Shown here in pieces: positions 26,057 to 28,305 of a stretch of 28,305 nucleotides of DNA (position 1 is the first letter of the stretch; each line of letters begins with the position of its first letter). Position numbers and translations under genes: made by a program. Below the pieces are notes generated by a model, which was not told where the DNA came from, did not search any database, and saw only the letters and a list, made by a program, of their open reading frames with translations. Source of the stretch: a virus. Its lineage: Duplodnaviria > Heunggongvirae > Uroviricota > Caudoviricetes. The stretch is from positions 1-28,305 of the IMG/VR virus record IMGVR_UViG_2681813235_000002. One strand, 5' to 3'.

Positions 26057-26302
26057 ATGGATCTGACATTAGTCGGTATATTCGCTACGTTGTTTACTTT
26101 TATGGTGCGTTATGCCGTAATTAAACGACGAGAAGCGGTACAGCTAGAAAGTCGTATCAAGCAGTTAGAAGTGAAGTTAGAAGCATTAGAAGCACGTACA
26201 GAAATGTTAGAAGATGATGTAAATGAGTTGATGAGAATTCATAATGAATTAACAGATATCAAGTCAGATTTAAAGCGTGTTCTAAATGTAGTATCAAAAT
26301 AA
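26057..26302 (+). CDS. small membrane protein: N-terminal TM helix plus coiled coil (holin/spanin-like candidate)
   Basis: ATG 26057 with AAGGA 8 nt upstream; LTLVGIFATLFTFMVRYAVI is followed by heptad-like QLESRIKQLEVKLEALEARTEMLEDDV; convergent with the endolysin. Confidence 0.45.
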   Translation: MDLTLVGIFATLFTFMVRYAVIKRREAVQLESRIKQLEVKLEALEARTEMLEDDVNELMRIHNELTDIKSDLKRVLNVVSK

Positions 26303-26309
26303 TAAAAAA

Positions 26310-26341
26310 GGGAAACCATTGTTGGCTTCCCTTTCTTTTTT
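26310..26341. terminator. bidirectional intrinsic terminator between convergent genes
   Basis: GGGAAACCA / TTGT / TGGCTTCCC (9-bp stem, one A-C mismatch), flanked by an A-run upstream and TTTCTTTTTT downstream. Confidence 0.7.
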
Positions 26342-26786
26342 ATTTGTTTTTTAAATCTTTAATCATTGCATCTACACGATTAGGTGTCTGGCGATACCAT
26401 AAACTATCTTTACACTGTTTAATCGCTTCAGAGTAATTCTTATCTTCAAGTGCTTTGAGCATCTTCTTAAACTTCTTAACGCCTGCTAATCCAAGTTGGA
26501 ATACCATAATGATTAGAAATTCATTCCAATCAGACGGGAGATCAATCTTAAGTGATTTTACGCCTTTTTGTGCAATGGCAATATCTGCCTGTAATAACTT
26601 TTCAGCCTGTAGTTCATCAATACCATTGGGGAAAGATTCACCACTTTTGAGTAAGTGACCATAACCAATTGTGGGATAACCTAGATGGTCTTTGTATACG
26701 TGGAAACGACCATAGCGGAATGTACCAATATGTGATTGATACTTTAAACTACCTTCATAATCTTTTAGTTTTTGTTCTAATGTCAT
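26340..26786 (-). CDS. endolysin, T4-lysozyme-like (glycoside hydrolase family 24)
   Basis: [20 protein letters not shown] and [11 protein letters not shown] match the T4 lysozyme motifs YYTIGIGHLL, MVFQMGETGV and SRWYNQTPNRA; no signal peptide. Confidence 0.8.
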
Positions 26787-26829
26787 AATAAATACCTTTG
26801 AATGTTAATTAATTATAAGGATATTTATC

Positions 26830-27262
26830 ATGAAAGAATGGCAATTTAATAACCCCGATACATGGGAAGAATCAGATGTAGTATCTGGTGATTATAATTC
26901 ATTTGTATATATCATTCGTTTTGAAACAGGTGAGTCATATTTGCGGAATGAAAAATATATATAAGAATTTAAAAGATATTAAGAAAATCAAAAACAGTAC
27001 TAAAGAAAGTGATTGGAGATCCTATACATCCTCATCTAAGACAGTAAATGATATGATTGATTGCGGTGTCGAGTATGAAAAATATATCTTATGGTGTTTT
27101 GAAACTACTAACGAAGCGGCAATAATCGAAAGTGCATTGATATATATTTTTGGACTTAAACCAGACAATTTAAACAAAGCGGTAATGAGTAAAACGAGAC
27201 TACCTAAAGATGGGCGTAAACTATTCAAAACATTACAATACTTGATAGAGGAATTATCATGA
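26830..27262 (+). CDS. GIY-YIG-like protein, interrupted by a +1 frame change near 26890-26960
   Basis: ATG 26830 with AAGGA 9 nt upstream gives ...[15 protein letters not shown], which then joins the track ORF 26888-27262; F-V-Y-(9 aa)-Y-I-x-G resembles the GIY-YIG motif. Confidence 0.4.
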
Positions 27263-27849
27263 AAAATAAAGTCAATTTTAAAGTTGAAAATATACAAGGT
27301 GCTAAAAAGTACATTAATGATGAAAGTAAGAACTACTACAATCAATTCCGTGATGAAGTATGGCAACGTATGAAACAGGCCGCTAAACAGATTCAGGATG
27401 AGATTAACACCAGTGCAGCAGGTGGTGTAGTACCATTTACTAATAACGCCTTTGTGACATTCTTTAAACGTACCAGTACTGGTATTAGTGTTACTATCCA
27501 GTTAAAAGATAATCGCCGTGATGCTGGTTATATGTATAGTGCATTAGTTAAAGATACTCCCTATGATGGATTCATCCCCACCAGTAACGCAAAGTTGACA
27601 AAGCAAGGTAACATTAGTGGATTCCGTGCAAATCTAAAAAGTGGTAAATATAAGGTAGTGGAAAGCGGCGGTGTGAAACGTGTAATTGATACTCGTAAAA
27701 CGGGTAAAGTACATGATGAACGTGTTATTGCAACTAAAGAAATTAAAGATCGTAAGATTGTATATAACTTCTATAAAGAAGCCGATAAGAAACTATTTAA
27801 TATTATTAATGACATTAAAGGATCATTTAATATAAGGAAAAACAAATGA
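27259..27849 (+). CDS. hypothetical protein (196 aa, basic)
   Basis: ORF-track entry; ATGA overlap with the upstream gene. Confidence 0.55.
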
Positions 27850-28166
27850 ACAATTATGAACAGCCACACTATGAAGAAGACAAAGTAGCACAAATTACAC
27901 TTGGTGCCGATACCCCATTTTATAATAGCCTTCCATTTAATAGAAGTTATATTACTAATAAAATTATCAAGAAAGAAATTAAACAAAATAAAGATCTTCA
28001 ATCATTTATGACCGTTGGATTTTTCGATGATAAGGGATATAAGACACAAGATACTACTACCTGGTCGTTAGGTTTGCTTACTATTGATGTAGTCGTAGTT
28101 AATAAGTGTAAGGCATTCATTAAAGGTAAAAATGTTTGGATTTATACTATTGGTTTTAAAGAATAA
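27846..28166 (+). CDS. hypothetical protein (106 aa)
   Basis: ORF-track entry; ATGA overlap. Confidence 0.5.
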
Positions 28167-28176
28167 GGATGTGTAT

Positions 28177-28305
28177 ATGTTTAGTATGTTAAAAGTTGTG
28201 CTAGTACAAAGTCTTCAATACTTCATAACTAAAAAAATTGATGAAGCAACCGATAATAAAAAAGATAAGGATAAAAAAGATGAAAAAGATGATAGAGCTA
28301 ACTAA
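28177..28305 (+). CDS. 42-aa membrane peptide with a highly charged C-terminal tail (holin/antiholin-like candidate)
   Basis: AAGGA 8 nt upstream of ATG 28177; MFSMLKVVLVQSLQYFI then KKIDEATDNKKDKDKKDEKDDRAN; stop at 28303-28305. Confidence 0.4.
   Translation: MFSMLKVVLVQSLQYFITKKIDEATDNKKDKDKKDEKDDRAN

Follow-up and report, generated by a model that had tools for sequence, protein, structure and literature searches.

The right end of a 28,305-nucleotide (nt) stretch of Caudoviricetes DNA (IMG/VR record IMGVR_UViG_2681813235_000002, positions 1 to 28,305; the whole stretch is hereafter referred to as the window) carries a compact group of genes that an earlier note on the same DNA had described as a lysis region. 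Beyond the C-terminal part of the tail-tip gene J, it encodes an 81-amino-acid (aa) membrane-anchored coiled-coil protein, a lysozyme gene convergent to it, a frameshifted GIY-YIG homing endonuclease gene, two conserved proteins of 196 and 106 aa and, at the very edge of the window, a 42-aa open reading frame (ORF) whose end overlaps the start of a 70-aa ORF (Table 1). We identify this region as the right-end lysis module of a ~32-kb, low-GC, siphovirus-type prophage with a serine integrase, of which the present copy is decaying. In kind, the system is an ordinary one, namely a holin-endolysin lysis module at a prophage end. Several features stand out: an endolysin gene that keeps its reversed orientation among the relatives and adjoins a Seg-type homing endonuclease gene; the occurrence of a releasin-like membrane coiled-coil protein outside of the Mu-like phages; a holin-like gene of an uncharacterized family, which in this lineage is in two pieces and runs past the window edge; and the lack of a recognisable spanin. 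For the three membrane-related ORFs, the functions discussed below are those that we infer from their sequences.

The prophage to which the window belongs, an uncultured ~32-kb serine-integrase element of Escherichia coli, is represented here by a cryptic copy. In NZ_CM129855 (L017), a near-identical copy that has been annotated, the element measures ~32.2 kb (10522–42752), is inserted into yegD, which it splits, and has a large serine recombinase gene at its left end; relative to this copy, the window extends from a GIY-YIG gene through the 42-aa ORF. The GC content is 0.357 within the element and 0.539 in the flanking E. coli chromosome. Exact-protein look-ups recovered the products of the two convergent genes from many E. 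coli chromosomes, and among 5,426 complete E. coli genomes, only 25–32 carry the element. In the window, each of the genes for the large terminase, portal, tail fibre, J and the GIY-YIG nuclease is found in 2–4 pieces, whereas in a divergent relative at the same yegD site (NZ_CM151386; L042/L022) the broken genes are single and intact, encoding, for example, a 623-aa TerL, a 498-aa portal protein and a 953-aa J. It is this combination of fragmented genes here and single genes in the divergent relative that marks the window copy as a cryptic, decaying prophage. A second lineage with 73% DNA identity (L021/L043) is decayed as well and contains an IS2 insertion. No isolated phage close to the element was found, as its capsid protein is at most 27% identical to that of any isolated phage and nucleotide searches against isolated phages returned short patches in the tail-tip and lysin genes and nothing more. 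Likewise, a literature search for a yegD-inserted prophage yielded no paper.

The module was compared with its equivalents in L021, L022 and 13 related viral contigs (~16–37 kb, most of them ~30 kb), giving 15 loci in total. In most of the viral contigs it lies at the contig end. The genes are arranged in the order tail tip, transmembrane coiled-coil gene, oppositely oriented lysozyme gene, GIY-YIG gene (where present), a gene for a protein of ~190 aa, one for a protein of ~105 aa and, finally, a holin-like ORF. This order is found in L021, L022 and 11 of the 13 viral contigs. In the other two (L025 and L029), the ~190/~105-aa pair instead precedes the coiled-coil gene, and the coiled-coil, lysozyme, GIY-YIG and holin-like genes are contiguous.

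The 148-aa product of the lysozyme gene matches Pfam Phage_lysozyme (PF00959) with 47.8 bits (cut-off, 22.3) as well as the structures of T4 lysozyme (E ~5e-15). The alignment pairs residues D33 and T39 with the catalytic D20 and T26 of T4 lysozyme, while E11, located within a DYEG motif outside of the aligned stretch, was taken by eye as the counterpart of T4 lysozyme E11 (IDEG). Within residues 1–35, there is neither a signal peptide nor a signal-arrest-release (SAR) segment, the best 11-residue Kyte-Doolittle mean being -0.06. Because it lacks a hydrophobic N-terminal stretch, the protein is, as judged from its sequence, a soluble cytoplasmic endolysin, and a soluble endolysin needs something to cross the inner membrane. 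This bears out the earlier note, which had described a T4-lysozyme-like endolysin on the opposite strand that has no signal peptide and so needs a holin, as to the identity and solubility of the enzyme and its need for a route across the inner membrane. The unusual orientation to which it drew attention is also real and is kept in every relative examined. The nearest known system is T4 lysozyme (gene e), which belongs to the same fold family, shares the catalytic Asp and Thr by alignment and the Glu by motif, and is likewise soluble, devoid of an export signal and dependent upon a membrane lesion for its release. The window lysozyme differs from it by 13 residues inserted between its catalytic Glu and YKD motif, by its length (148 versus 164 aa), by its location on the strand opposite to all of its neighbours and by its position beside a Seg-type homing endonuclease gene. 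Many sister copies of the element, L009–L013, L016 and L017 among them, carry a 1-nt insertion that cuts the lysozyme to 135 aa (…WYRSDT followed by a stop), and in the 73%-identity lineage (L021) the protein also lacks the N-terminal segment with the catalytic Glu; the allele found in the window is the intact one.

The 81-aa protein contains a membrane-grade hydrophobic segment at residues 3–22 (19-residue hydropathy mean, 1.83). AlphaFold, supplied with five homologues, models residues 2–80 as one continuous helix (predicted local distance difference test score, pLDDT, 92.8), and many coiled-coil families match the remainder of the protein, which agrees with its earlier description as a transmembrane helix plus a coiled coil. 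Its N-terminal flank is MD (charge -1), whereas four K/R residues follow the helix (KRRE…), a pattern also found in Mu gp25. Because of this charge distribution, the positive-inside rule predicts an N-out, C-in topology with a cytoplasmic coiled coil. The match to Pfam DUF2730 (PF10805) extends over nearly the whole length of the protein and reaches 22.3 bits (cut-off, 24.9); a 63%-identical homologue exceeds the cut-off with 26.1 bits. DUF2730 is the commonest Pfam family among members of the 81-aa protein family (9/15 at E<=0.01), and the RefSeq name of the protein is DUF2730 family protein. BLASTP aligns it collinearly with Mu gp25 over residues 1–79 (27% identity; E 2e-4 for the pair). Word-indexed homologue searches with this protein returned close relatives only, and an exhaustive profile search with the family yielded, apart from coiled-coil noise, three more relatives of full length. 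From these comparisons, the architectural resemblance to DUF2730 and the releasins is firm, while homology to DUF2730 is plausible but unproven.

Mu gp25 is a membrane-tethered cytoplasmic releasin that acts upon a SAR endolysin, and Mu is described as having no holin (Chamblee et al. 2022, PMC9239132). According to the same study, DUF2730 genes lie within five genes of an endolysin gene, their products are N-out/C-in proteins, and those encoded by isolated phages are found in transposable phages only; some are paired with cytoplasmic endolysins, and the role of these pairings was left open (PMC9239132). Like Mu gp25 and other DUF2730 proteins, the 81-aa protein is small, starts with MDL, has an N-terminal membrane helix, a basic flank and a helical domain predicted to be cytoplasmic, and is encoded next to an endolysin. 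Unlike Mu, the element is non-transposable and has a serine integrase, and its lysozyme contains no SAR domain. As the partner endolysin lacks this domain, the only demonstrated activity of a releasin, the freeing of a SAR endolysin, cannot apply here as such. A second group of comparable proteins consists of XhlA of PBSX and BhlA of SPbeta, membrane and coiled-coil proteins that are encoded beside holin and lysin in the lysis cassettes of Bacillus prophages. They too are small coiled-coil proteins with a single membrane helix, and members of the 81-aa family match them weakly (XhlA, 4/15 members, best E 2e-4; BhlA, 0.013). They differ in that their hosts are Gram positive, the membrane helix of XhlA is C-terminal, and the similarity does not rise above noise. 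An involvement of the 81-aa protein in lysis is best supported by the convergent pair that its gene forms with the lysozyme gene, which is invariant in 15/15 loci. Most likely, the protein is an accessory factor or regulator of lysis at the inner membrane, of the releasin (DUF2730) or XhlA kind; it is not an obvious holin and probably not the hole-former.

At the other end of the module, the 42-aa ORF had been taken to contain a membrane helix, a claim that did not survive: its best 19-residue Kyte-Doolittle mean is 1.03, compared to 1.6–1.8 for real membrane helices in the same run and a usual membrane cut-off of 1.6 for 19 residues. Instead, its slot is that of the N-terminal piece of a holin-like gene. 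In every copy, the 70-aa ORF begins 26 nt before the stop of the 42-aa ORF and has its own Shine-Dalgarno sequence (TAAGGA at 28267–28272, arranged as TAAGGA-N7-ATG), and its stop lies ~40 nt before yegD, and with it host DNA, resumes. The encoded protein has a basic N-terminus, a membrane helix at approximately residues 26–48 and a hydrophobic C-terminus (…EHIVEIITTLI), with its charge at the N-terminus rather than in a hydrophilic tail; its 19-residue hydropathy is 1.85, and that of the relatives is 2.3. In L022, a single 97-aa ORF (1844301–1844594 of NZ_CM151386) fills the entire slot between the 106-aa gene and the attachment site, and a single ORF of 86–100 aa occupies it in 13/13 related viral contigs. 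The 42-aa ORF shares both the slot and the start position with the single gene of L022 and of 12 viral contigs. Homology to the C-terminal half of this single-ORF family is evident for the 70-aa ORF (hhalign probability 96%, E 1e-9; BLASTP 4e-7), whereas the 42-aa ORF aligns in register with the N-terminal amphipathic helix of the family at a level that is not significant (hhalign E 0.006), and BLASTP of the 42-aa ORF against the family N-terminus found nothing. Word-indexed searches with the 70-aa protein likewise returned close relatives only. The 70-aa ORF and the 86–100-aa family thus constitute a small membrane protein of the lysis module with a conserved position.

The sole robust database match of this family is phrog_2024, a group of unknown function, which matches the 70-aa ORF at 1.4e-11 and 18/18 family members. 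Among the isolated phages searched, phrog_2024 occurs in T4-like phages only, as an unannotated small gene; in these Straboviridae, it stands alone on the opposite strand, flanked by genes 56 and 61. The named families touched by the holin-like proteins are holins only. The top Pfam family is GTA_holin_3TM (PF11351), which is matched by 9/18 family members at E<=1 (best, 6.6e-4), its gathering score of 24.8 bits being reached by none of the 18, and PHROG holin 3427 matches 5/18. Proteins of PF11351, such as the gene transfer agent holin of Rhodobacter capsulatus and TeaA of phage ICP1 (PMC7182436, PMC8601537), resemble the family in having a short amphipathic helix at the N-terminus, a polar linker, a membrane helix preceded by a W-R/K motif, a hydrophobic C-terminus and a location in a module with a muramidase. 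The holin-like proteins described here are about half the length of ICP1 ORF137 and of an Oceanospirillum phage ORF, and in the window lineage they are split into 42 and 70 aa. The earlier note had named a canonical holin just outside the window as a finding that would speak against its reading. The gene past the edge, most of which lies beyond it, is close to such a finding, as it appears from its sequence to be holin-like, though it is not a canonical holin.

The two-ORF state of this gene is present in 17/17 near-identical E. coli copies as well as in the 73%-identity lineage, in which the second ORF likewise keeps its Shine-Dalgarno sequence and ATG. The sole length variant was observed in L006 (E. 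coli GCA_017075975), where, at the equivalent of 28270–28290, a 9-nt tandem duplication (GATGAAAAA) in the ORF overlap adds three codons to both the 42-aa and the 70-aa ORF and leaves both frames open. Of 71 codons compared between the two lineages in the 70-aa ORF, 14 differ synonymously and 17 non-synonymously; in the 42-aa N-terminus, there are 5 differences of each sort in 22 codons. The ratio of non-synonymous to synonymous substitution rates (dN/dS) for the split gene is ~0.4–0.5, a rough value from raw counts, which suggests mild purifying selection. On the other hand, frameshifts abound elsewhere in both lineages, and that of the GIY-YIG gene has nearly the same position in the two. 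Either a shared old lesion or a tolerated fission could account for the split. If it is functional, the holin gene could have undergone fission into a soluble, antiholin-like N-terminal peptide and a membrane core; likewise, +1 recoding could yield full-length and short forms that set the timing of lysis. We regard it as improbable either that the 42/70 arrangement is functional in such a manner or that the DUF2730-like protein works together with a holin and a cytoplasmic endolysin in a non-transposable phage, which would extend the role of the releasin family past the freeing of SAR endolysins.

Considering these features together, we favor, as a moderately likely explanation overall, that the region is the right-end holin-endolysin lysis module of a decaying prophage in which the genes play the following roles. 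The soluble T4-type muramidase would build up in the cytoplasm late in infection and would reach the cell wall via lesions formed by the small holin-like membrane protein whose gene is the last of the prophage. In the intact relatives, this putative holin would be the product of one 86–100-aa ORF and would consist of an amphipathic N-terminal helix, a charged linker, a membrane segment and a hydrophobic C-terminus, whereas in the window lineage its gene would be represented by the two overlapping ORFs of 42 and 70 aa. The 81-aa protein would presumably assist or regulate lysis from the inner membrane, with its coiled coil in the cytoplasm.

The roles of the two membrane proteins could conceivably be assigned otherwise. 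The 81-aa protein might itself be the holin, a single-helix hole-former similar to BhlA or XhlA, in which case the 42/70-aa unit would do something else. It is the only membrane protein that always adjoins the lysozyme (15/15 loci), its size and single membrane helix fit some holins, and the weak BhlA and XhlA matches given above point in the same direction. However, its predicted architecture, a tethered coiled coil with an N-out, C-in topology, is that of Mu gp25, a releasin (PMC9239132), all of its family scores are sub-threshold, and the same module encodes a second conserved membrane protein with weak similarity to holins, which is why we consider this assignment unlikely. Far less probable still is a role as the inner-membrane subunit of an Rz-like spanin, which the earlier note had entertained. 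An N-terminal membrane helix followed by a coiled coil is indeed reminiscent of lambda Rz/Rz1, and there are weak PHROG matches to Rz-like spanins (0.02–0.04). Yet the topology is predicted to be the opposite, placing the coiled coil in the cytoplasm, 81 aa is only about half the size of Rz, and the partner is missing: scanning for lipoboxes in the window, the remainder of the element and the modules of the relatives revealed no credible lipoprotein ORF, whether embedded, overlapping or adjacent. The protein was accordingly rejected as an i-spanin, and no outer-membrane component is recognisable. Alternatively, it is the 42/70-aa gene (97 aa in L022) that might have been misassigned, if it is a small membrane moron expressed from the prophage, for instance with a superinfection exclusion or toxin-like function, and the holin of the module is either unrecognised or absent. 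Its place as the last gene before the attachment site is typical of morons, its protein has no charged C-terminal tail, and its sole robust family, phrog_2024, is of unknown function and is found as a lone opposite-strand gene in T4-like phages, which already have a holin of their own, T. On the other hand, the gene is co-oriented and translationally packed with the preceding genes of the module, it is contiguous with the coiled-coil, lysozyme and GIY-YIG genes in L025 and L029, holins are the only named families that it touches, and a soluble endolysin needs a hole-former, for which the 32-kb element yielded no other candidate; we therefore hold the moron interpretation to be doubtful.

Setting aside the question of original function, the module in this copy could be an inert remnant and its split holin-like gene a dead pseudogene. 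Such a state would be in keeping with the fragmented terminase, portal, tail fibre, J and GIY-YIG genes, each of which is single in the intact relative, with the sister copies that have a frameshifted 135-aa lysozyme, and with the 73%-identity lineage, which has lost the catalytic lysozyme N-terminus and acquired IS2. Conversely, the lysozyme and 81-aa genes of the window are intact, the two-ORF arrangement persists across 17/17 copies and the 73%-identity lineage, the second ORF retains its Shine-Dalgarno sequence and ATG, the 9-nt duplication preserves both frames, and substitutions are biased toward synonymous ones (rough dN/dS ~0.4–0.5). With evidence of both sorts, we judge an inert remnant to be rather less than likely.

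Several observations weigh against the functional holin-endolysin module that we favor. The 42/70 split may be just one more inactivating frameshift comparable to those of the terminase, portal, J and GIY-YIG genes, and the lysozyme is truncated in many sister copies. The 70-aa protein does not have the charged C-terminal tail typical of holins, its family phrog_2024 is confined, in isolated phages, to T4-like phages, and no holin family reaches its curated threshold. Furthermore, hhalign comparisons of the holin-like family with ICP1 ORF137, which we take to be TeaA, and with the Oceanospirillum phage ORF, presumably its ORF26 and a PF11351 protein, found nothing when each of the two was used as a single sequence. 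For the 81-aa family, coiled-coil noise scores as well as DUF2730 does (ABC_tran_CTD, 3.6e-5), hhalign gives a probability of only 23–24% for the Mu-type DUF2730 subfamily, and a Vibrio-type DUF2730 protein exhibits no significant similarity by the same method.

Were the roles proposed here to be correct, phrog_2024, an unannotated family of small membrane proteins, would gain its first functional hypothesis. The DUF2730-like protein would be an example from outside the Mu-like phages of one encoded beside a soluble endolysin, a pairing whose role was left open previously (PMC9239132). The element would also document an uncultured family of low-GC, serine-integrase prophages of Enterobacteria that is without a recognisable spanin.

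Table 1. Features of the right-end module and fragmented genes elsewhere in the window (positions are those of the window)
Feature	Position (nt)	Strand	Remarks
Tail-tip gene (J, C-terminal part)	ends 25996	+	stretch read, 25355–28305
Small G+C hairpin	26004–26022	+	between tail-tip gene and 81-aa gene; folding free energy (dG) -11.2 kcal/mol, z score (z) -3.0
AATAAGGATGTGT, copy 1	26042–26054	+	Shine-Dalgarno sequence (AAGGA, 7 nt before ATG 26057) of 81-aa gene
81-aa membrane-anchored coiled-coil protein	26057–26302	+	last gene of plus-strand late block, convergent to lysozyme gene
Bidirectional intrinsic terminator	26304–26337		common to convergent 81-aa and lysozyme genes
Soluble GH24 T4 e-type lysozyme, 148 aa, read as endolysin	26340–26786	-	Pfam and T4 structures; intact in this copy
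SegE-type GIY-YIG homing endonuclease gene	26830–27262	+	frameshifted: 44 aa (26830–26964) and 104 aa (26948–27262)
196-aa very basic protein (net charge +19)	27259–27849	+	conserved in right-end module, function unknown
106-aa conserved protein	27846–28166	+	conserved in right-end module, function unknown
AATAAGGATGTGT, copy 2	28162–28174	+	stop of 106-aa gene (TAA 28164–28166) and Shine-Dalgarno sequence of 42-aa ORF
42-aa ORF, weakly hydrophobic N-terminal helix and charged tail	28177–28305	+	start corresponds to start of holin-like gene of relatives
70-aa ORF, start (first 26 nt)	28280–28305	+	+1 frame; runs 187 nt past window end; 42500–42712 in L017
Fragmented genes	6433–10733, 13450–16951, 22566–25996		terminase in 3–4 ORFs, portal in 2, tail fibre in 2, J in 3

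The 13-mer AATAAGGATGTGT, which occurs exactly twice in the window (at 26042 and 28162), had been put forward as an upstream motif common to the two candidate membrane protein genes. Although both copies are present, the motif is nothing more than the ordinary ribosome-binding site of the phage and carries no lysis-specific signal. The plus strand contains 23 copies of TAAGGA and the minus strand two, with 15 copies located 5–10 nt before an ATG; approximately 10 of the picked gene starts have ATAAGGA or TAAGGA, in which the TAA often doubles as the stop of the upstream gene. Pairs of identical 13-mers are also common in the window, with 116 observed versus ~20 expected by chance, and in L021 and L022 the orthologous genes are not preceded by the TGTGT extension. 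Two hairpins flank the 81-aa gene. The one preceding it is terminator-like, but has a weak T tract, while the one that follows forms a stable fold in either direction (dG -14.8 and -20.3 kcal/mol, z -3.9 and -6.6) and is bordered by a run of T on both sides.

Among the neighbouring genes, only the second half of the GIY-YIG gene scores against SegE_GIY-YIG (PF19835), with 36.4 bits, compared to 60.9 bits for intact 145-aa relatives. The gene, which is divergent from the lysozyme gene, is intact (143–149 aa) in L022 and L025–L038 and missing in L023 and L024. Another GIY-YIG nuclease gene is found at 1–333, making two in the window. The 196-aa and 106-aa proteins have no membrane segment and no match to any family in Pfam, PHROG or NCBIfam, and NCBIfam yielded no useful matches for any protein of the module. 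A single-sequence AlphaFold model of the 196-aa protein was unusable (pLDDT 38). All of the relatives conserve this protein, and only its L022 orthologue has a weak PHROG match to a minor tail protein (8.8e-4). An 81-aa Gly/Ala-rich hydrophobic ORF at 22283–22528 was considered as a holin and rejected due to its location in the tail module and its resemblance to a lambda protein, which we take to be the C-terminal part of tail protein I.

The arrangement in L025 and L029 (1600–4260) suggests that either the contiguous block or the ~190/~105-aa pair has moved as a unit, and an additional 40-aa hydrophobic ORF precedes the block in these contigs. Three genes of the arm (26340–28305 and just beyond) are most closely related, as far as isolated phages are concerned, to genes of T4-like or jumbo phages, namely those for the lysozyme, which has a nucleotide match to the lysin of phage EJP2, the SegE-type nuclease and the phrog_2024 membrane protein. 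Lastly, other copies of the element are located beside bssR/yliI.

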